Assembly (NCBI GenBank): GCA_019429105.1
Contig: JAHYJE010000008.1
Span: 2,931 to 66,930 of the forward strand
Origin: Syntrophobacterales bacterium
GTDB lineage: Bacteria; Desulfobacterota; Syntrophia; Syntrophales; UBA5619
Length of the DNA stretch: 64,000 nt
Direction of reading: 5' to 3'
Part shown: positions 1-10,989 of the stretch, piece by piece
How the letters are laid out: every line of letters begins with the position of its first letter
Position numbering within the stretch: the stretch's first letter is position 1
Translations under genes and position numbers: made by a program
Notes under the pieces: generated by a model
Told to the model about the DNA's origin: nothing
Seen by the model: the letters and a program-made list of their open reading frames with translations, nothing else
Database searches by the model: none

Positions 1-341
1 CGCTCGAGGATTCCCATGTAGCTGTCGCCCTGGAGCCGCCAGGCAAATTCCTCGGCCCGGTATCCGCCGAAGACGAAATGGGTGTGGGAGTCGACGAAGC
101 CCGGCAACACGGCCTTGCCCGTCGCGTCGATTGTTGCGAAGCGCAAGAGGTCTTTGCCCACCGCCCTCAGCTCCGCCATAATGGCTTCCGTAGGACCGAC
201 CTTTGTTATCCGGCCGTCTTCGATGACGATTGCCCCGGCGGCGATAACGCCGAGCTCGGACATTTCCCGGCCCTTTTTTGCGGCAAACCCGGCGCAGGTG
301 ACAAGTTCGGCAGCATTTTTTATGATGAGATTTCCGCTCAT
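1..341 (-). CDS. hutI: imidazolonepropionase, N-terminal part (gene continues past the left edge)
   Basis: Own reverse translation from the ATG at 339-341 gives [18 protein letters not shown]...[39 protein letters not shown]. It has the DxHxH metal box and the N-terminal layout of HutI. It starts 6 nt after the stop of the upstream gene. It is absent from the ORF track because no stop lies in the window. Confidence 0.8.
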
Positions 342-347
342 TCTTCC

Positions 348-1253
348 TTACTCATAGATTTTTGATTCCAGCACCTGCCCGGGGTTGAAGTCTTCGAGCT
401 GGAGATAGTAAGCCGCCGTGTCGATCAGGGCGGCCATTGGCGTCAGGCCGATGATCTCGCTGCCGATTACCGGCGCCCCCCAGCGCTTGGCCTCGATGCG
501 GATCAGCTCAAATACCCGGTAGAGGGAGGTTCTGGTGTAATCGGTCAGGTTGATCGACACCTGGACGAGGCCGCGTTCTTTGAGTTCAATCCCGATCGCC
601 TTGCAGTAGCGCAGCCCGCCGCTGCTATGTCTGATTTTTCGGGCGATATCATTGGCAATAGCGAGCGAGGAGGTGCCGAGATTGACGTTGAAGGCCACGA
701 GCGGCATCCGGGCGCCGATGGCGGCAACGCCGGCCGAAGGGTGAAGCGCGTCCGGGCCGAAATCGGGTTTCCAGCCGGGCTGTTGGAGCTTCCGGGCCAT
801 CCCCTCGAACTGACCCCTGCGGATGTCGGCAAGGTTGCGGCGATTTTCCGCCGAGGCTGATTCTTCGTAGAGAAAAACAGGCAGGTTGAATTTTTTCGCA
901 ACCTGCTCGGCGACCTGTTTCGATAGCTCGATTGCCTCCGGCATGGTCATGTTTTTCACCGGGATGAACGGAACGACGTCCACGGCGCCCATACGGGGAT
1001 GCTGCCCCTTGTGGGTGCGCATGTCGATGAGCCCGAGCGCGACCTCCATCGCGTCCATGACGGCCGAAGCCAGCGCCGCAGGTTCGCCTGCCACGGTGAC
1101 GACGGTGCGGTTGTGATCGTAATCCGGTTTGTAGTCGAGCAGCCGGACGCCTTCGTGCTCCCGGAAAGGCTGGACGATTTTTTCGATCTTTTCCGGATCG
1201 CGCCCCTCGCTGAAGTTGGGGACGCATTCGACGATTTTTTTCATTGTTGACAT
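348..1253 (-). CDS. ftcD: glutamate formimidoyltransferase (FtcD transferase-domain type)
   Basis: 301-aa ORF. The N-terminus KIVECVPNFSEGRD and ...HPRMGAVDVVPFIP... are typical of formiminotransferases. It sits between hutU and hutI on the same strand. Confidence 0.85.
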   Translation of the reverse strand: MSTMKKIVECVPNFSEGRDPEKIEKIVQPFREHEGVRLLDYKPDYDHNRTVVTVAGEPAALASAVMDAMEVALGLIDMRTHKGQHPRMGAVDVVPFIPVKNMTMPEAIELSKQVAEQVAKKFNLPVFLYEESASAENRRNLADIRRGQFEGMARKLQQPGWKPDFGPDALHPSAGVAAIGARMPLVAFNVNLGTSSLAIANDIARKIRHSSGGLRYCKAIGIELKERGLVQVSINLTDYTRTSLYRVFELIRIEAKRWGAPVIGSEIIGLTPMAALIDTAAYYLQLEDFNPGQVLESKIYE

Positions 1254-1318: not shown

Positions 1319-3367
1319 TCATGATTTGGCTTTTTTCTTGAATTGCCGGGCCACGGCATCCGCCACCAGCCTGTCGTCCGCCAGGTAGGGCAGTGTAATA
1401 TGGTCTAATCCGGCACGCAGTTTGTTGTAAGCGATACATGTTTCGAGGGCGCCCTCGTTGCGGGCCCAGGCACGGCGGGCTACCCCGCCCATCACATCCC
1501 AGGGGATTGCCGTGCGGATTATCGCATCCACCCGCGGGCTTCCGTCCAGCACCAGTCCGAAGCCGCCGTTGATCGCCTTGCCGATTCCCACCCCGCCGCC
1601 GTTGTGCAGCGAAACCAGGCTCATTCCTCGGGCGGCGTTGCCGGCAAAGCAATGGGTGGCCATGTCGGCCATGATGTTGCTGCCGTCGTGGATGTTGGCC
1701 GTTTCCCGAAACGGCGAGTCGGTGCCGCCGGTGTCGTGGTGGTCGCGGCCGAGCATAACCGGCCCGATTTCGCCGGTTCGCACCAGCTCGTTGAATCTGA
1801 GGGCAATTTTCATCCGGCCCTGCGCGTCCTGGTAGAGGATGCGGGCCTTTGTTCCGACGACCAGATGGTTTTTCCGGGCGTCGCGGATCCAGTTGTAGTT
1901 GTCGCGATCCTGGAAGCGGTGCGTGGGGTCGATGCACGCCATTGCGGCCTGGTCGGTTTTTTCCAGGTCATCTTCCTCGCCGCTCAGGCAGACCCAGCGG
2001 AATGGTCCGTAGCCGTAGTCAAAAAGCAGCGGCCCCATGATGTCCTCGACATACGACGGGAAGATGAAACCGTCGAGTGTATTTTCTCCGTTTTTGCAGA
2101 CATCTTTAATGCCGACATCATAAACCGCCTTGAGGAAGCTGTTGCCGTAGTCAAAGAAAAACGCCCCGCGCGCGGAAAGGGTTTTGATGAGTTCATAGTG
2201 ATGGCGAAGCGTGCCATCTACCATTTTCCGGAAGGCGGCGCTGTCGTCGTTAAGGAGTTTCGTGCGCTCCTCAAAGCTTATCCCCTCGGGGCAGTAGCCC
2301 CCGTCGTAAACGGCGTGGCAGGAGGTCTGATCCGTCAAGAGGTCTATCGCGACGTCTTTGCCAACCGCGTATTGGAGCAAGTCAACGATGTTCCCGTGAA
2401 ACGCAATCGCCCGCCCCTGACCCTTTTTTTGCCAGTCGCGCGCGGCGGCGAAGGCCCCGGCGGGGCTGTCCGTCACCTCGTCCACCCACCCCTGGTCGAG
2501 GCGGGTTTTGATGCGGGAGGAGTCCACCTCGGCAATAACCCCGACCCCGCCTGCGATAACGACGGCTTTCCCCTGGGCGCCGCTCATGCCGCCCAGTCCC
2601 GAGCTTACGAAGAGCCGCCCCGCGAGGTTTCGCTCCTCCGGGATGCCGAGCTTGGCGCGTCCGGCGTTCAGGATCGTGCTGTATGTGCCGTGCACGATTC
2701 CCTGGGGTCCGATGTACATCCAGCCGCCGGCGGTCATCTGCCCGTAATTCGCCACCCCCAGCGCCATCGCGCGGCGCCAGTTGGCCTGATCGTCAAAGCA
2801 GCCCACCATCAGGGCGTTGGTGATGATGACGCGCGGGGCTTCCGGGGGGGAAGCGAAAAGACCGACCGGATGGCCGGAGGCCACAACCAGTGTCTGCGTG
2901 CGGGTGAGCGCTTCAAGGTAGCGTTTGACAAGCTGGTACTGCATCCAGTTCTGGCAGACCTGACCGGTTTCGCCATAGGTCACCAGTTCGTAAGGGTAGA
3001 GGGCGACAGCGAAGTCGAGGTTGTTATCGATCATCACCTGCAGGGCCCGGCCTTCGAGGCACTGCCCCTTGTAGTCGCCGACGGGCCGTCCGGTGATTTT
3101 CCCGGCAGGACGGAAGCGATAGCCGTAAATGCGCCCGCGTGTCGTCAGCTCCTCCAGAAACTCCGGGACCAGCGTCCCGTGCCACTTTTCCGGTATATAG
3201 CGCAGGGCGTTTTTCAGGGCGAGTTCGGTGTCTTTCGGGGATAGATCAAAGTGCCGGGTGGGCGCCCGGCGGATTCCCGGCGAGAACTCCGGGGGCGAAG
3301 GAAGCTCGTCAAAGATGGCGTCTATGCGGATCGTCATCGCCTTTACGAGGGAATCGTTTGAGATCAT
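1319..3367 (-). CDS. hutU: urocanate hydratase
   Basis: Long ORF 1319-3418, whose track start is a GTG. I prefer the ATG at 3365-3367, which is preceded by GGGAGG. Urocanase-like blocks are present: GLGGMSGAQGKA, YIGPQGIVHGT, HDTGGTDSPFRETANI. Confidence 0.9.
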   Translation of the reverse strand: MISNDSLVKAMTIRIDAIFDELPSPPEFSPGIRRAPTRHFDLSPKDTELALKNALRYIPEKWHGTLVPEFLEELTTRGRIYGYRFRPAGKITGRPVGDYKGQCLEGRALQVMIDNNLDFAVALYPYELVTYGETGQVCQNWMQYQLVKRYLEALTRTQTLVVASGHPVGLFASPPEAPRVIITNALMVGCFDDQANWRRAMALGVANYGQMTAGGWMYIGPQGIVHGTYSTILNAGRAKLGIPEERNLAGRLFVSSGLGGMSGAQGKAVVIAGGVGVIAEVDSSRIKTRLDQGWVDEVTDSPAGAFAAARDWQKKGQGRAIAFHGNIVDLLQYAVGKDVAIDLLTDQTSCHAVYDGGYCPEGISFEERTKLLNDDSAAFRKMVDGTLRHHYELIKTLSARGAFFFDYGNSFLKAVYDVGIKDVCKNGENTLDGFIFPSYVEDIMGPLLFDYGYGPFRWVCLSGEEDDLEKTDQAAMACIDPTHRFQDRDNYNWIRDARKNHLVVGTKARILYQDAQGRMKIALRFNELVRTGEIGPVMLGRDHHDTGGTDSPFRETANIHDGSNIMADMATHCFAGNAARGMSLVSLHNGGGVGIGKAINGGFGLVLDGSPRVDAIIRTAIPWDVMGGVARRAWARNEGALETCIAYNKLRAGLDHITLPYLADDRLVADAVARQFKKKAKS

Positions 3368-3803
3368 GGCGCCAACCTCCCAATATTTTTGTTCTTGTAG
3401 GCGGCGGCGCGCCGCCACGTCCGTTTGTTGCCATTTCGATCAAAAGCCTGCGGGCTGGAGTATAGGAGGCAGCGCCGAGTGGTGTCAAGATAAAATCCTT
3501 CTGCCGCCGGGATTGAAAGCCTCTTGCCTCATGTTGCCATTAGCGCCTTAAGCCGGAATCCTGTCGAAGAAACAACAAAATTGATCGGTCCGTAAAAAGT
3601 CTGAAATCCCCCTCCCTTAGGCCAGCACCTTGCAAGAAACCACCATTATTTATTGAAGTCGGTAACTGAGGAGGATGAATTTTTGTAGCAGCTTTGTACC
3701 CGTAATGCTTAGCCAAAAAGAGATTGCTTTTTACCTCCTTCACCTACTACTCATCAGTCCCAGACGGCCACACAAGATAAAGATTACAGGTAAAAAATGT
3801 ACA

Positions 3804-3832
3804 CAAAAAAAGGCAGGGCTAAGGACCCTGCC
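3804..3832 (-). terminator. rho-independent terminator downstream of the peptidase gene
   Basis: On the minus strand: GGCAGGG-tccttag-CCCTGCC followed by TTTTTTTG, about 20 nt after the stop at 3853. Confidence 0.75.
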
Positions 3833-3852
3833 TTTGAAAGGATAGGACTACA

Positions 3853-5595
3853 TCAGGGAATACTCGTGTCAACTAAGTTGTTGCTCTCATCCGATTCAGC
3901 AATACTTTTTAGAGAGTCTATAAAGGCAATCAAATGTCTTCCTGCCGGAGATGAAGTTGTCGTGAATCGGATGCTGGTCGCTTTACTGGAATTTGCGCTT
4001 AAGACCTTGTATTTATATGTCTTCACCAATAAATCATTGTCACTCAATGAACCATCATCGGAAAGAAAAAAATCAACCTGGACATTGCTGAAGTTCATTT
4101 GACTTGCGTTGGTGACAGTGAACGTGCCTGAAACGGTGTAAACACCTCTTTTCGGGCCAGTCCACGTAACATTTGACCAACTGCCCAAAAGGTCCACGGC
4201 TGTACCGTCGACGCCCGTTCCTGTCAGAGAAATGTTCAAAGGATTCTCATCGGGATCATTAGATTGGATAGTTATCGTAGCCGATTTTGCACCGGCCGAA
4301 AGCGGGGAAAATTGGGCCTGAAACGTACAACTCGACGAGGGGGCTATGGGCGTGGAGCAAGCTCCAGTGATACTGAATTCTGATGTGTCTGCTATGGCGA
4401 TGGTTCCTATACTGAGGTCAGCCGATCCTGTATTGGAGACCGTAAAGGTTTTCGTGGAAGTGTCGCCGATGTTTATATTCACAAAATTATATGAACCGGG
4501 AGAAACGGAGATATCAGGTGTCCTAATAACATTTCCCGCAAGATTCACGATGCTTACGCTCAAGAGTTTCATCCCCGAATAACTGGTACCCCAAATCATC
4601 GTATGGTCGTTATTGTCCCAAGTGTCATGAATATAAACCGTTTTTGTGGAATCATCATAACCCACGCCAACGATCGAATGCCCCTGGAGATTTAGCAACA
4701 CAGGCCGTCCAGCATCGATTTCCGCCTTGAATTGTGCAAATGAAAAGCCCCCGCGTTTGGCATTGTCCGTCGCCTGGGCATAGCAATCTGTAACCGTATA
4801 TCCCTTCGCTTCATAAAACAGTTTTCTTCCGTAAGTCCCGTCCTCGTCGGCAATGCTAAAACCTTCCATGGCGCTGCAGCTGAGCGGGGTGGCTGAGCTA
4901 CTATAAGAATAGAAACTGGTTGATCCGTCGTCATTGCCGTAAGCAGATTGGCTGGTTTTCATGAAATCGCCGATCGCATCACCCCAGGCATGTTGGGACC
5001 AAGGTTCCGTTATATAAGGATCGTCTTTGCCGCTCAAATAAGAATACCAATAATCATCTATTGAGCCGTAGGTTTTCCTTTCGTCCAATCCGAAATGAGA
5101 GGCGATTAACGGGTTGTCAGGATATGTATCTCCAGCCCTATCTGGCCAGATTCCCCAAGCGGCATCTTCAACTATAGGGATCATACCATCATCCGTAGGC
5201 CCTTTATAAATGTTCGGAAAGTCGGTTCGGTCATAATACCCGGCGATCATTGCGCCTGAAACTGCCGAGCAGCCAAAAACCCATCTGAATGCGGGAACCT
5301 GCGGCAATGAGCCGACCATCGATTCCACACTGATTTTCGGCAATGAAACGTGAGCGCGCTCACGTTCGTACCCTGGAGGTGGCTTCGGCGGGCCGTTAAT
5401 TATACTACGTTCAAGAACAATTCCGTCACTGTAAGTCGTCGTTTGGGTACTGAAATGCTTGTTAATGATATTCAATGGTCCTTTTTCAACTGGAATCTTC
5501 AGGGCAACAGGTTGTCCATAAACCGTCAATGGGGAGGCAAAAATAAAAATTGATAAGACGCTCAATAAGAACAATGGCATCACAGATTTCTTCAT
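3853..5595 (-). CDS. secreted papain-fold (C39-like) cysteine peptidase with choice-of-anchor-D-like and CARDB-like C-terminal domains
   Basis: ATG at 5593-5595 preceded by AGGAGGG. Signal peptide MKKSVMPLFLLSVLSIFIFASPLTVYG. Candidate Cys box FGCSAVSGAMIAGYY and His box GHSIVGVGYDD...HDTWD. Ig-like block FTVSNTGSADLSIG...ITIQSNDPDENP. C-terminal ...ESDESNN, which is CARDB-like. AT-richer than its neighbours. Confidence 0.7.
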   Translation of the reverse strand: MKKSVMPLFLLSVLSIFIFASPLTVYGQPVALKIPVEKGPLNIINKHFSTQTTTYSDGIVLERSIINGPPKPPPGYERERAHVSLPKISVESMVGSLPQVPAFRWVFGCSAVSGAMIAGYYDRTDFPNIYKGPTDDGMIPIVEDAAWGIWPDRAGDTYPDNPLIASHFGLDERKTYGSIDDYWYSYLSGKDDPYITEPWSQHAWGDAIGDFMKTSQSAYGNDDGSTSFYSYSSSATPLSCSAMEGFSIADEDGTYGRKLFYEAKGYTVTDCYAQATDNAKRGGFSFAQFKAEIDAGRPVLLNLQGHSIVGVGYDDSTKTVYIHDTWDNNDHTMIWGTSYSGMKLLSVSIVNLAGNVIRTPDISVSPGSYNFVNINIGDTSTKTFTVSNTGSADLSIGTIAIADTSEFSITGACSTPIAPSSSCTFQAQFSPLSAGAKSATITIQSNDPDENPLNISLTGTGVDGTAVDLLGSWSNVTWTGPKRGVYTVSGTFTVTNASQMNFSNVQVDFFLSDDGSLSDNDLLVKTYKYKVLSANSSKATSIRFTTTSSPAGRHLIAFIDSLKSIAESDESNNLVDTSIP

Positions 5596-6240
5596 GGTAG
5601 TTCCCTCCTTTCTATATTTCTTGAAATAAAATAATAACTCAAGGTACCTAAACAACGCCTCGCCCTCTGCTGGTCAATAACGGGGTGCCAAGAATCGCCT
5701 CATGGCACCACCCTCTCGTCAAGGGTTAACATCCATTGCGAACCTGCTAAAGTACCCGACGATGGTATAAAGATGGTCCTGTTTTCTCTCCAAGTCAAGA
5801 AAAATAATCTTATCGATAGCACTTTAAAGGGTGGATATCTGTCAAAATTACCGGACGCTTGACTACAGGAAGTAGACCTCAAATCGTCATCCCCGCCTTT
5901 TTAAAAGAACAATACGCTCTATTTCCGAACGAAAGCAAGCATTTTCCTCAAGGTTGACTTTTTGAGGACTACAGGAAGGAGGCTTCGATCCCGATCTTCC
6001 TCCCAAAATGCCATCTTTCAACCCGAACTCGGTAATATCCGTTGATTACCCCAATTGCAACTTGTATTTGGAGGGAATTTTCTGAGGATTTTGACTGAAG
6101 AGGGAATTGTATGGTAGTCAACCTTTCCACAAAAAATCTTTCTTGAGGGAAGCACAAGGATTATGTGGATTAAGTGCTGTTCGGCCCCCACCGGATTATT
6201 TGCACGATAGAGAATTTATGATAAATTGCCGCCTGATGGA

Positions 6241-6438
6241 TTATGCGGCGACGAACTCGATTTTTACCCGCATTCCCGTTGATCCAGCGATCTTTTCCAA
6301 TGTCTTGAGAGTGAAGCCCTCATACTCGCCGCTTTCGATCCTTGAAATTGCCTGCTGGCTGGTTCCCATAAGCTTTGCCAACTGCTGTTGCGATAATCCC
6401 TTCTTATCACGCAGCTCTGCAATCTTTATCGCCAGCAT
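6241..6438 (-). CDS. XRE-family helix-turn-helix protein (antitoxin-like, apparently N-terminally shortened)
   Basis: 65 aa. LRDKKGLSQQQLAKLMGTSQQAISRIESG is a classic HTH_3 motif. The in-frame upstream sequence (KKYQYHDVKQKQAL) has no start codon and reaches a stop within 54 nt. Confidence 0.6.
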   Translation of the reverse strand: MLAIKIAELRDKKGLSQQQLAKLMGTSQQAISRIESGEYEGFTLKTLEKIAGSTGMRVKIEFVAA

Positions 6439-6512
6439 GAGAGCTTGTTTCTGCTTAACATCATGATACTGGTATTTTTTACCGCAGTACTATCCCGTTA
6501 CGATTCGGCTCT

Positions 6513-7670
6513 CTATTTCTTGTCAGGGTGGGTGTTTGCATGTTTGAGCAGGCTTCCGTCACTCACCAGTTTGCGCATGGTTTCGATGTGCGGGTAGAGC
6601 GCCTCATCTTTTTCGAGGAACGGGATGTGGCTGCGGATGAGTTCGTAGGCCGGGGCGGTGCCTTTTCCCATTCTGGCTTCCGGACCGAGAATCTTGCGCC
6701 TGAAATCGATGCCTTGCGCGGCGGAAAGCAGCTCTATGGCCAGGATTGTTTCCACGTTCGTCGCAATCTCGCGGGCCTGACGCGCAGCTGCCGGCCCCAT
6801 GCTGACATGGTCTTCGATATTGGCCGAGGTCGGGATGGTGTCCACGCTGGACGGGTGGGACAGCACCTTGTTTTCGGAGGCGAGCGCGGCGGCGGTGTAC
6901 TGAACCAGCATGAACCCCGAGTTAACCCCTCCGTCGTTGATCAAAAATGGGGGAAGGATGTGATTATTGCTGTCCGCGTCCACCAGCCTCGCGATGCGCC
7001 GTTCCGAGATGTTCCCCAGTTCGGCCAGGGCAAAAGCCAGGTAATCCATCGAGATTGCCAGCGGCTCCCCGTGGAAATTTCCGCCCGAAAGCACGGTGGC
7101 GTTTTCGTTTTCATCAAAGAAAATCAAAGGGTTATCTGTTGCGGAATTCAGCTCGATGTTCATCACCCAGCGGGCGTAGGCGATTGCATCCATGATCGCG
7201 CCATGCACCTGGGGAATGCAGCGCAGCGTGTAGGCGTCCTGCACGTTGAGCGGGTCGTCGGGTCTGGTGAAGGTGGATCCCTCGATAAGCTGGCGCATGT
7301 AGGCGGCGCATTCCACCTGACGGGGATGGGGGCGGGCGGCGTGGATGCGCGCATCGAAGGCGCGCGGGGTGCCGTGCAGGGCCTCCAGGCTCATCGCCCC
7401 GGCAAGTCCCGCTATATGGGTCAACTGCTCGGCTCTGCAGGTGACCAGCACCCCTATCGCGTTCATCATGGTCGTTCCGTTGGTGATGCCGTAAACGACT
7501 TCGCCGCGGGCCACGAAATCCTGAACAGTCCGGGCCGCCCGCCTTACGTTATCCCAGGCCGCCGGGGCAATCGATACCTGAATTGCGGGATTATTGGCAA
7601 CGGCAAGCACTCCTTCGATGGTCAGTGATTCGCCGTCCAGGACTAATTGGGACTGGTATGAGGTGGACAT
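6513..7670 (-). CDS. hutH: histidine ammonia-lyase homologue with an in-frame internal deletion (MIO segment missing; possibly non-functional)
   Basis: 385 aa, against more than 500 aa for canonical HALs. The N-terminal box ends ...EVVYGIT and runs straight into NGTTMMNAIG. The rest is clearly HAL-like: QDAYTLRCIPQVHG, NSATDNPLIF, SGGNFHGEP, SANIEDHVSMG. No A-S-G triad occurs anywhere in the product. Confidence 0.8.
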   Translation of the reverse strand: MSTSYQSQLVLDGESLTIEGVLAVANNPAIQVSIAPAAWDNVRRAARTVQDFVARGEVVYGITNGTTMMNAIGVLVTCRAEQLTHIAGLAGAMSLEALHGTPRAFDARIHAARPHPRQVECAAYMRQLIEGSTFTRPDDPLNVQDAYTLRCIPQVHGAIMDAIAYARWVMNIELNSATDNPLIFFDENENATVLSGGNFHGEPLAISMDYLAFALAELGNISERRIARLVDADSNNHILPPFLINDGGVNSGFMLVQYTAAALASENKVLSHPSSVDTIPTSANIEDHVSMGPAAARQAREIATNVETILAIELLSAAQGIDFRRKILGPEARMGKGTAPAYELIRSHIPFLEKDEALYPHIETMRKLVSDGSLLKHANTHPDKK

Positions 7671-7705: not shown

Positions 7706-9064
7706 TTATTCAGGATCAGCGGCATCCTCCGGACGCTGTACGAAGGCGGCCGCCGATTCCCCGGCGAGGTGGCCGGTGGAGAAGGCGGCCTGGAGGTTGT
7801 AGCCGCCGGTATCGGCGTCGATGTCCATCACCTCCCCGCAGAAGAAAAGGCCGCCCACCAGCCGGGAGGCCATTGTCCGCGGATCGATCTCGGCAAGAGA
7901 AACGCCGCCTGCGGTCACAATCGCCGAGTTCAGCGGCAGCGGCCCCTTGATGGTAAAGCAGAGCCCCTTCAGCAAAGCGAGGAGCCGATCACGTTCCGGC
8001 GCCGTGATCTGACTTCCCGTCCGTTCCGCCGGGATGCTGCACATTTGGATAAACGGCTCGATCATCTTATGAGGGAGCAGTCCCGGCAGCAGGTTCCGAA
8101 AACTTCGCTTGCCGCCCGCGTCGAAATCCCGCTGCAGGCGGGCGCGCAGCTCCTCGAAGGAAAGGGCGGGTTTGAGATCGATCGCGACGCTGACCGGACC
8201 CTCCGCGAGGGCGTCCACCACGGCAAGGCTCATCAAGAGCGTGATCGGTCCGCCTATCCCGAAATGGGTAAAGAGCATCTCCCCCATTCGGCTTTCGATC
8301 ACCACCCCTTTTTTCCGTATTCGCTCCAGGCCGCGCCCCACATCTTCCTGCGGGACAAAGGCTGGGGAAAAAAGGTCAATCTTTCCGCGAAAGGCGGTAA
8401 GCCGGACATTCTTTAGGCTCACCCCCTGCATCGCCTTGGCCTTTTCAATTTCAGCGACAATCAGTGGGACGAGGGCCGGCCTGGGCTTTACGATCTTGTG
8501 TCCCACCGCAGCCGCAAGCCGGAAACCGTCGCCGTTCGAACCTGTTTCCTGCCAACTGGCGCCGCCCGCCGCGAGGATTGCCGCCCGGGCCGACAAAAAC
8601 CCCTTCCGCGTTTGCACCCCCGAAAGCTTGCCGTTTCCGATAACGAGCCTGCTTGCCGGGGAATTCAAGAGCAACTCCACCTTGCCCTCTTGCAGATAGC
8701 TCCGGAAGGCCCTTACTACATCCGCCGCCTCGTCGGAAACGGGGAAAATCCGCCCGCCCCGCTCGGTCTTTGTTGCGACCCCGAAACGAGCCAGGAAGGA
8801 AAGCAGGTCATCCCGGAAAAAGCGGTGAAAGGCTCCGTGTAAAAATCGGCCATTGGGGCCGTACATGGGCAGAAATTCAGCGAGGCTGCGGGCGTTGGAC
8901 AGATTGCAGCGGGACTTGCCGCTGATCAGGATTTTCTTGCCCAGCCCCTCCATTTTTTCGAGCAGGACGACCGTTGCCCCCAGCTCTGCGGCCCGGCCGG
9001 CGGCCATCATTCCCCCCGCGCCCCCGCCGATCACGATCACCCGATTGCCCTTTGGCTCAGCCAC
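7706..9064 (-). CDS. HI0933/BaiN-like NAD(P)/FAD-dependent oxidoreductase
   Basis: Rossmann box RVIVIGGGAGGMMAAGRAAELG followed by ...GKKILISGKSRCNLSN. The longest ORF reaches 9193 and overlaps the upstream gene. I prefer the GTG at 9062-9064, 7 codons before the GxGxxG box. The start is uncertain. Confidence 0.7.
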   Translation of the reverse strand: MAEPKGNRVIVIGGGAGGMMAAGRAAELGATVVLLEKMEGLGKKILISGKSRCNLSNARSLAEFLPMYGPNGRFLHGAFHRFFRDDLLSFLARFGVATKTERGGRIFPVSDEAADVVRAFRSYLQEGKVELLLNSPASRLVIGNGKLSGVQTRKGFLSARAAILAAGGASWQETGSNGDGFRLAAAVGHKIVKPRPALVPLIVAEIEKAKAMQGVSLKNVRLTAFRGKIDLFSPAFVPQEDVGRGLERIRKKGVVIESRMGEMLFTHFGIGGPITLLMSLAVVDALAEGPVSVAIDLKPALSFEELRARLQRDFDAGGKRSFRNLLPGLLPHKMIEPFIQMCSIPAERTGSQITAPERDRLLALLKGLCFTIKGPLPLNSAIVTAGGVSLAEIDPRTMASRLVGGLFFCGEVMDIDADTGGYNLQAAFSTGHLAGESAAAFVQRPEDAADPE

Positions 9065-9144
9065 GCCCGGCAAGAAGTTTTTCTGATCCTGTTTGATAAT
9101 TGCCCGCCCGGATACTGGCTGGACGCGGCCTTGCCTTTCTGCCT

Positions 9145-9696
9145 TCAAACCCCGTCCCTCCCGGAGCTGATCATCTTGCGCAGCTCTTCCCAAGCGATAT
9201 CATTGTGAAGACAGTCATAACGCTCCGCCACGATGACCTGGGGGATAAGCCGCCGCCCTTTCAGATGTACGCCTCTGCCGGTTATCCTTGTTGATTTGAT
9301 GCCCCGTTCGATCTCGTAGGCGCAGGCCGCGCCGATCGCCGCCCGGATATCCTTTCTTTCGGTAAGTCGTTTCGTAAAATTGGTGCTGGGGGAGATGTAG
9401 AACTGCCAGCCTTTCTCCTTGCACAAAGCGAGAATCTCGCCGCAGCGGCAATCTCCGCACTTCATGCAGAGAACGCCCTCATTTTTGGAGAAATGGGCGC
9501 GGCATTTATCCCCGGTCAGGCAGTGGGGCAGGATGACCGCTTTTTCAGAGGGAGGAAGCCGGTCGAACTCTTCACGATAGCAGGAATTGACGTTACCGGC
9601 GAGGTCCAGGCCGATCCCCAGCCGGTTCAGAAAAGCCCGAAAAGGATAGAACAGCAGCGTAAAGAGCAGCCTCGACTTTTTTGAAATACTTGTCAT
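9145..9696 (-). CDS. DUF116-family protein
   Basis: 183 aa. N-terminal hydrophobic segment, then LPHCLTGDKCRA...CMKCGDCRCGEI cysteine pattern, as in DUF116 proteins. Confidence 0.6.
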   Translation of the reverse strand: MTSISKKSRLLFTLLFYPFRAFLNRLGIGLDLAGNVNSCYREEFDRLPPSEKAVILPHCLTGDKCRAHFSKNEGVLCMKCGDCRCGEILALCKEKGWQFYISPSTNFTKRLTERKDIRAAIGAACAYEIERGIKSTRITGRGVHLKGRRLIPQVIVAERYDCLHNDIAWEELRKMISSGRDGV

Positions 9697-9920
9697 CGGA
9701 TATTACCCGTCCTCATGGAAAAATTTTTAAACTTGGAGAACCCGCTGAATCATGGACCTGAAAGTTTCACGGGAATAGCATAAAATAAATGGGGAAAGCA
9801 ATTTTTTTAGCTCTTTATGACTACCATCGGGGCAACATCTATGTTATAGGTGCACCCGTTTACGTTTATTTGTGGCCATTAAGGTCACTATCCCCTTTAA
9901 AAGGCCTCGGAGCGCTGAAT

Positions 9921-10859
9921 TTGGACTTGAATTCCAGAAAAATCGTCTTTGTGGTGAATCCCCATTCGGGAAACGGAAAAACGGGCAGGGAGTGGCCGCG
10001 GATCAACCGGCTGGCCGAGGAAATTCTGGGTCCGTTCCAAACCTGCCTTACCAGAGGACCGGGCGACGCCACTTGCTTGACAAGAGCTTGTCTTCTCGAG
10101 GGAGCGAACATTGTCGTCTGCGTCGGCGGGGACGGTACGCTCAACGAGGTTATCAACGGTTTTTTTGATGATGACGCGCCAGTTCGCACGGGGGTTTCCC
10201 TCGGGTTCATTCCCAACGGCACCGGCTGCGATTTTGCCCGCACCTTTCCCGCTGTGTCCGGAATAAGGGCCGCCCTGCAAGCGATAAAAACCGCTTCTAC
10301 CAGAACGATAGACCTCGGACGCATCCGCTTTCGCAATCATCAGGGCGGCACAACCAGCCGGTATTTTCACAATATCGCGAGTTTCGGCATGGGAGGAGAG
10401 GTCGTCGAGCGGGTAAACCGCACGAGCAAGGCCTTTGGCCCTTTTGTCACCTTTATCTGGGGGACACTGCTGACGCTGTTTTCTTACAAAAAAAAGGCGG
10501 TCACGATCGGCGTGGATGACGGCAAAAAGTTAACAAAAGACATCTTTCATATCGCCGTTGCCAACGGCCGTTACCAGGGCGGCGGGATGCTGGTTGCACC
10601 CGATGCAGTCATGGACGATGGCTTTTTTCAGGTAACGATTATAGGCGCCATGAGCCTGCCGCTTGTTCTCCTGCGCTTGCCGAAGCTCTACAACGGAAAG
10701 ATAAAAAGCATCCCCCAGGTCTTCGTTACAACCGGCAAGCGGGTAACCCTGTCCTCCGACGAACAGGTTCTGTTCGATATTGACGGCGAACAGCCCGGAA
10801 TTTTGCCGGCGGTATTGGAAATTGTCCCGGCGGCCATCGCGATGATCGTGAAAAACTGA
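9921..10859 (+). CDS. diacylglycerol-kinase-family lipid kinase (YegS/BmrU-like)
   Basis: KIVFVVNPHSGNGK and VVCVGGDGTLNEVINGF boxes. The longest ORF starts at 9789, but its first 44 codons look non-protein-like. The in-frame TTG at 9921 lies 8 nt after GGAG. The start is uncertain. Confidence 0.75.
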   Translation: MDLNSRKIVFVVNPHSGNGKTGREWPRINRLAEEILGPFQTCLTRGPGDATCLTRACLLEGANIVVCVGGDGTLNEVINGFFDDDAPVRTGVSLGFIPNGTGCDFARTFPAVSGIRAALQAIKTASTRTIDLGRIRFRNHQGGTTSRYFHNIASFGMGGEVVERVNRTSKAFGPFVTFIWGTLLTLFSYKKKAVTIGVDDGKKLTKDIFHIAVANGRYQGGGMLVAPDAVMDDGFFQVTIIGAMSLPLVLLRLPKLYNGKIKSIPQVFVTTGKRVTLSSDEQVLFDIDGEQPGILPAVLEIVPAAIAMIVKN

Positions 10860-10989
10860 CCAATAACTACCCTTCCCGGAAGACCTTTATGGTTGCCGCC
10901 GGCCAGGTTAACTGAGCAGAGCCTCCTGCAAAAACTCACAGGCCACGGCGTCGTCATCGACAACAAGGATGCGGATTGCCTGCGTTTTC

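Follow-up and report, generated by a model that had tools for sequence, protein, structure and literature searches.

A probable recent in-frame deletion of the MIO-forming segment in the hutH gene of a Syntrophales genome

Histidine ammonia-lyase (HAL or HutH, EC 4.3.1.3) converts histidine to urocanate, and among the known structures PDB 1B8F/1GKM are those of the P. putida enzyme, 7TQR is that of the T. acidophilum enzyme and 6S7J is that of ergothionase, a member of the same lyase fold family. Bacterial pseudogenes can form by deletion between short direct repeats, through replication slippage and a deletional bias, and a deletion between such repeats that leaves a single copy behind is the classic footprint of slipped-strand mispairing. 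In HAL, the MIO, which is formed from an Ala-Ser-Gly triad, is essential for ammonia elimination (bioRxiv 10.1101/2025.08.13.670108). The HAL family also includes trimethylammonia-lyases that lack the MIO, namely ergothionase and the histidine betaine trimethylammonia-lyase Swoo_3913, both of which retain the His that binds the substrate and are of full length (bioRxiv 10.1101/2025.08.13.670108).

Here, we analysed a hutH gene carried on the minus strand (6513..7670) of the window, that is, the whole 64,000-nt stretch of DNA under study. The gene is an open frame of 385 aa that starts with an ATG preceded by GGAG, and in it HAL residues 1-63 are joined directly to residues 202-514 (in the numbering of the closest relative, the full-length P0002) and followed by a foreign tail of nine codons. 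An earlier note on this DNA had placed the junction at codons 63/64 (nt 7479-7484), where YGIT passes into NGTT, and the codon read-out agrees with it exactly, codon 63 being ACC (7484-7482) and codon 64 AAC (7481-7479). The HAL-like character of both ends of the product, also claimed there, is borne out by Pfam, NCBIfam and PDB matches that all fall into two stretches. The PF00221 (Lyase_aromatic) profile matched with 401 bits over profile positions 1-49 and 184-465 rather than continuously, and the two-stretch matches to TIGR01225 (403.4 bits) and NF006871 (441.9 bits) lay under the curated cut-offs of 539.15 and 524, respectively. The HAL structures 7TQR and 1B8F/1GK3 aligned to query residues 8-66 and 61-~374 and skipped chain residues ~60-190, with E = 5e-81 for the T. 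acidophilum enzyme (7TQR).

Comparison with HutH revealed an extensive likeness outside the missing segment. Over the retained parts the product is 91% identical to a 521-aa relative; it keeps Tyr60 of the YGI motif as well as the NGT, QDxY(S/T)LRC (here QDAYTLRC) and SANxEDHVSM (here SANIEDHVSM) motifs, which were aligned to the P. putida and T. acidophilum HALs and are invariant in an alignment of 46 sequences, and its gene lies in a cluster with hutU, a formiminotransferase gene and hutI. The C-terminal motifs, a clear descent from a hutH gene and the hut neighbourhood expected of HutH are all present. The remnant differs from HutH in lacking 138 residues, and with them the Ala-Ser-Gly triad, the TGFG box and the His of LVSHAVG (H90 in P0002), in scoring under both NCBIfam cut-offs and in its foreign last nine codons. 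The GASGDL (MIO) motif lies inside the 138-column gap, and the earlier observation that no A-S-G tripeptide occurs in the product can be extended to every other [A/T/C/S/G]-S-G; LSG194 and NSG250 are its sole x-S-G tripeptides, and they occupy conserved non-MIO positions. With the MIO-less trimethylammonia-lyases the remnant shares the lyase fold family and the absence of Ala-Ser-Gly. However, those enzymes substitute the triad alone, whereas here the whole segment is deleted, which sets the remnant apart from that group, and its similarity to ergothionase (E = 3e-44, 24% identity in the fold alignment) is much lower than that to HutH.

The closest proteins (the best 120 from a collection of 5.8 billion sequences) reach 91% identity over the kept parts and are nearly all 513-531 aa long. 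In an alignment of ten sequences, comprising nine close relatives and the window, the gap in the product spans 138 consecutive columns (414 nt), which in the relatives run from YGIT|TGFG through GASGDL to EGLAL|TNGTT, and it opens at the same place in HAL-family profile models. Since the alignment is made directly to relatives that are 80-91% identical, a chance match is not an issue for this gap. The proposal that an in-frame deletion had taken out the MIO-forming segment is thus upheld by these relatives. Of the further statement that the two flanking boxes are usually ~120-130 residues apart with GASGDL between them, the content of the stretch stands, whereas its size is corrected to 138 residues (414 nt) relative to the closest relatives; the alignment suggested at the time for sizing the gap has thereby been made, and it shows the MIO triad to be missing from the product.

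At the nucleotide level, window positions 7681-7477 match positions 2517-2721 of the related locus L003, and window positions 7484-6543 match its positions 3128-4069, so that the two matches overlap by 8 nt. At the deletion junction (7481..7486, minus strand), just one copy of the direct repeat TCACCA survives. In the nearest relatives the two repeat sites read A-TCACCA-C-CGGC and C-TCACCA-A-CGGC, where the window keeps the single TCACCA at 7486-7481, and a spacing of 414 nt and a shared codon phase were found for the two copies in each of the 13 relatives examined (ATCACC^ACCGGC ... CTCACC^AACGG). The microhomology that had been suspected at the two boxes is indeed there, both ends of the deletion lying in the direct repeat TCACCA(C/A)CGG, which is perfect over 6 nt and matches at 10/11 positions with its flanks. 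Read in the same phase, each of the copies gives (I/L)-T-(T/N)-G, and the hutH frame therefore stayed open. Judged by the nucleotide sequence, the deletion bears the signature of a slipped-strand deletion. It resembles pseudogene formation at direct repeats in consisting of one deletion at a 6-nt perfect repeat (10/11 imperfect) with one copy left, and further in being private to one lineage and in lying in a dispensable accessory island that carries an insertion; the peculiarity of the present case is that it is in frame and looks like an intact, annotatable gene.

Around the junction (7380-7560), the similarity of the window hutH to related loci is mosaic. L003 is the nearest match (93%) over the 5' 200 nt, and the ~60 nt just past the junction are near-identical to L005 and unlike L003. 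Such a pattern points to island variants having recombined or to strains having been mixed in the assembly.

The TGFG box, the GASGDL (MIO) loop and the His that binds the imidazole all fall within the lost segment, together with about six helices; the segment is near-invariant across 45 relatives. In an AF2 model of the full-length P0002 it is well ordered and comprises six helices and several strands, with block pLDDT values mostly of 87-98 and one at 71. The 385-aa product was modeled with a mean pLDDT of 77.4 (86.6 for P0002) and a pTM of 0.80 (0.89 for P0002), and a fold search with its model returned HALs as the top matches, with query-normalised TM-scores of 0.67-0.78; these AF2 models serve as a rough control and say nothing on the folding of the remnant in vivo. 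Because the MIO is essential and the substrate-binding His is deleted too, we infer with some force that the 385-aa product, deprived also of about a quarter of the fold, would be unable to deaminate histidine.

A non-catalytic HAL-fold protein had been offered as an alternative in the earlier note, and our searches gave no family of this kind: no clade of short, non-catalytic hutH homologues was found among the best 120 proteins, among the 80 loci fetched from genome_contigs or in a junction search of genome and metagenome contigs. Apart from the query's own cluster (P0001) and three shorter entries, the best 120 proteins are all full length (513-557 aa). The shorter entries were considered as a short clade and rejected: P0038 (360 aa) and P0097 (382 aa) are each the downstream half of a frameshift-split hutH whose N-terminal piece is called just upstream, and P0068 (467 aa) misses only its N-terminus and contains GASGDL. 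P0122, considered as an intact allele of the same strain, belongs to the 90% cluster of the window protein; it is nevertheless a full-length gene of a different lineage (~89% identity). In the frame carrying the match, the Ala-Ser-Gly triad is kept in 74 of the 80 loci; five of the six loci without it (L053, L067, L087, L091, L092 and L093) rank among the most distant hits, and L066 has the triad in a shortened frame. A degenerate pattern for the YGIT-NGTT junction had no match in genome_contigs or metagenome_contigs. Further negatives came from an exact look-up of the 385-aa protein, which returned no record, from a 25-nt pattern specific to the strain and taken 5' of the junction, which had no match in metagenome_contigs, and from a search with the first 120 residues for short fragment proteins of the same strain, which gave only distant matches of at most 71% identity. 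None of these searches turned up an independent assembly of the strain, with or without the deletion, and together with the junction search they are weak negatives in this respect, because records of the window's own genome may have been kept out of them.

As a side observation, two JGI contigs carry a hutH split into two ORFs (L106 2031-3583 and L107 2113-3649), and next to it L106 also has a split gene for serine dehydratase alpha. These splits are most likely frameshift errors in the assemblies and not biology.

A tree of the retained columns places the window hutH as sister to the full-length P0002 within a full-length clade, on a terminal branch of 0.064 (median 0.076). It carries one private change at otherwise invariant columns (0-7 in the controls), and its dN/dS is 0.15 to L003 and 0.083 to L005, next to 0.05-0.125 among the intact relatives. 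The remaining codons show no decay, which leaves three readings: a recent event, one that is not real, or continued selection on the remnant. The comparison lends no support to the last of these, and our best reading of these rates is that the deletion would be recent.

The remaining genes of the hut cluster follow the order of the related loci L003 and L005, in which hutH, a spacer of ~220 nt, hutU, an FTCD-type formiminotransferase gene and hutI succeed one another. In the window, however, similarity to these loci ends inside hutH at ~6541, after codon 376 (LLK), and resumes at ~3507. Between hutH and hutU lies an AT-rich insert of ~3.0 kb (3508..6541, no strand assigned) with a G+C content of 0.456, compared with 0.60 for the hut genes. 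Because homology to the relatives stops after codon 376, the native last hutH codons and stop have been replaced by the insert, which supplies the last nine codons and the stop in the form of a non-homologous 3' tail (6513..6541, minus strand; HANTHPDKK). Inside the insert, all on the minus strand, are a predicted 65-aa XRE/HTH_3 regulator (6241..6438), a 600-aa ORF (3853..5655) with Peptidase_C39_2-like, Ig-like (HYDIN/VesB) and CARDB domains, and, 3' of this ORF, a strong terminator-like hairpin (3835-3809). A search of the insert edges for terminal repeats and a target duplication found neither. The insert represents a second, independent lesion of hutH and fits a gene that is no longer under selection.

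Outside the insert and upstream of hutU, a promoter-like site (3459..3488, minus strand; TTGACA-18-TATACT, 11/12 matches) is conserved in L005. It is followed on the same strand by an intact hutU (urocanase, 682 aa; 1319..3367, ATG at 3367), an intact glutamate formiminotransferase gene with FTCD_N and FTCD domains (301 aa; 348..1253) and the 5' part of hutI (imidazolonepropionase; 1..341), whose full 423-aa frame (C13:2000-3271) is intact.

At the other edge of the island lies a native Syntrophales gene for an HI0933-like (BaiN/YhiN) flavoprotein (7706..9193, minus strand), which shares 93% protein and 94.3% nucleotide identity with the copy of the same-genus genome G003 and whose named homologues are from Syntrophales or Deltaproteobacteria. 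Similarity to same-genus genomes stops at window position 7738, at the hutH edge, and synteny extends over ~3.1 kb only (7738-10874). Neither hutH nor hutU was found in any of the 30 related genomes searched, which come from the same genus, family and order, and for that reason the hut island can be regarded as dispensable. The named relatives of hutH are Anaerolineales MAGs with 79-85% amino acid identity, and the hut cluster is probably an accessory island acquired by horizontal transfer, with a cross-phylum look. In the metagenome loci L004 and L005 and in the contig of P0004, a hut island adjoins the same flavoprotein gene, and in all three hutH is full length.

Taken together, we interpret the gene as a real, private and recent loss-of-function allele of hutH, i.e. 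a young in-frame pseudogene, at a probability of about 0.68. The idea of a recent inactivating deletion, already put forward in the earlier note, agrees best with a private allele, a normal terminal branch and the lack of codon decay. That the activity might be backed up, with the missing part encoded elsewhere or a second hutH supplying it, has next to no probability and, as far as a draft assembly allows, is refuted: when all six frames of the genome were searched with PF00221 and the full-length P0002, in line with the earlier suggestion to look for a second hutH, this locus alone was recovered as the single PF00221 gene, and P0002 residues 66-199 had no match anywhere in the genome. We consider it unlikely, though worth weighing, that the organism, or most of its population, has an intact hutH of ~523 aa and that the deletion is an assembly, consensus or library artefact, be it through a chimeric molecule, through wrong resolution of a strain bubble or through a deletion variant carried by a minority. 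Such an origin would be in keeping with the source of the allele, which is known from one contig of one metagenome-type assembly (95 contigs, 3.1 Mb, 100% complete by tool estimate), with remaining codons as well kept as those of working genes and with the mosaic similarity to L003 and L005, which could hint at strain mixing. On the other hand, the 6-10 bases of homology are far below assembler word sizes, for which reason junction-bearing reads should exist, making an assembly collapse at the junction unlikely; moreover, the missing 414 nt occur nowhere in the assembly as an orphan contig, and the second, independent lesion at the 3' end fits a gene no longer under selection.

A folded and selected MIO-less HAL-fold protein, acting in ligand binding, in regulation, through tetramer poisoning or in trimethylamine elimination from histidine betaines, appears very improbable to us. 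The open frame, the intact start region with its good ribosome-binding site, the low dN/dS and the pTM of 0.80 with HALs as top fold matches are compatible with it, and active MIO-less HAL-family enzymes exist in ergothionase and the histidine betaine trimethylammonia-lyase (bioRxiv 10.1101/2025.08.13.670108). Yet an open frame, a good ribosome-binding site and the lack of decay would be expected equally of a functional short protein and of an artefact in an intact gene, and the low dN/dS is inherited from a shared history with intact genes, given the short terminal branch. In addition, no second example exists among thousands of homologues, the closest relatives (91% identity) are ordinary Ala-Ser-Gly-bearing HutH proteins, the NCBIfam hutH models score under their cut-offs, and the known MIO-less lyases are full length with the His and the whole fold, whereas the present product has lost 138 residues and that His with them. 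We would place hardly any weight on a deletion that is real and at the same time selected, so that the syntroph, having disabled HutH alone and kept hutU, the formiminotransferase gene and hutI behind their own promoter, would spare its own histidine and use the urocanate of its neighbours, or on a stable MIO-less remnant with a binding or regulatory role.

For the favoured recent pseudogene, we propose that the hut island was acquired, as the grouping of its hutH with Anaerolineales genes would suggest, and that one slipped-strand (microhomology-mediated) deletion between the two TCACCA copies removed codons 64-201 of a ~521-aa HutH. The lost segment would have taken with it the Ala-Ser-Gly triad, TGFG, the His of LVSHAVG and about six helices, or roughly a quarter of the fold. 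A later insert of 3.0 kb would then have damaged the island, replacing the last nine hutH codons and parting hutH from hutU. With hutU, the formiminotransferase gene and hutI intact behind a promoter-like site of their own, only the first step of the pathway would be lost, and the rest may be awaiting decay or may still serve external urocanate.

The case is one of ordinary gene decay, of a kind already known, and not a new kind of protein; it leaves the current view of the enzyme family unchanged. Its value lies in the way a knockout can be hidden, as a textbook example in which a repeat that encodes its peptide in the same phase makes the deletion in frame. Annotation pipelines will label the open 385-aa frame "histidine ammonia-lyase", and metabolic reconstructions would credit this Syntrophales genome with a histidine degradation that it is most likely unable to start. 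The island itself, foreign-looking, hit twice and absent from the relatives searched, would provide a small case of an acquired pathway being lost again.

Further variation was observed at the place occupied by the island. In L004 (1-4580) and L003 (1-2520), which belong to the closest hutH relatives, a block of SLFN/AlbA_2, ResIII helicase and restriction-endonuclease genes lies between the HI0933-like gene and hutH, and from these blocks the junction between the two genes appears to be an insertion hot spot in several lineages. In the same-genus genomes G003 (L104 1-2250) and G002 (L105 5520-8700), the corresponding place downstream of the HI0933-like gene holds unrelated genes: an ORF of 129 aa and a longer one, which has 477 aa in G002 and, in G003, 453 aa up to the end of the contig, where it is still open. 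By eye the two are putatively cupin-like and CoA-binding, ADP-forming acetyl-CoA synthetase-like, respectively. A further ORF of 360 aa, seen in G002, carries cysteine-rich motifs of a ferredoxin-like kind.
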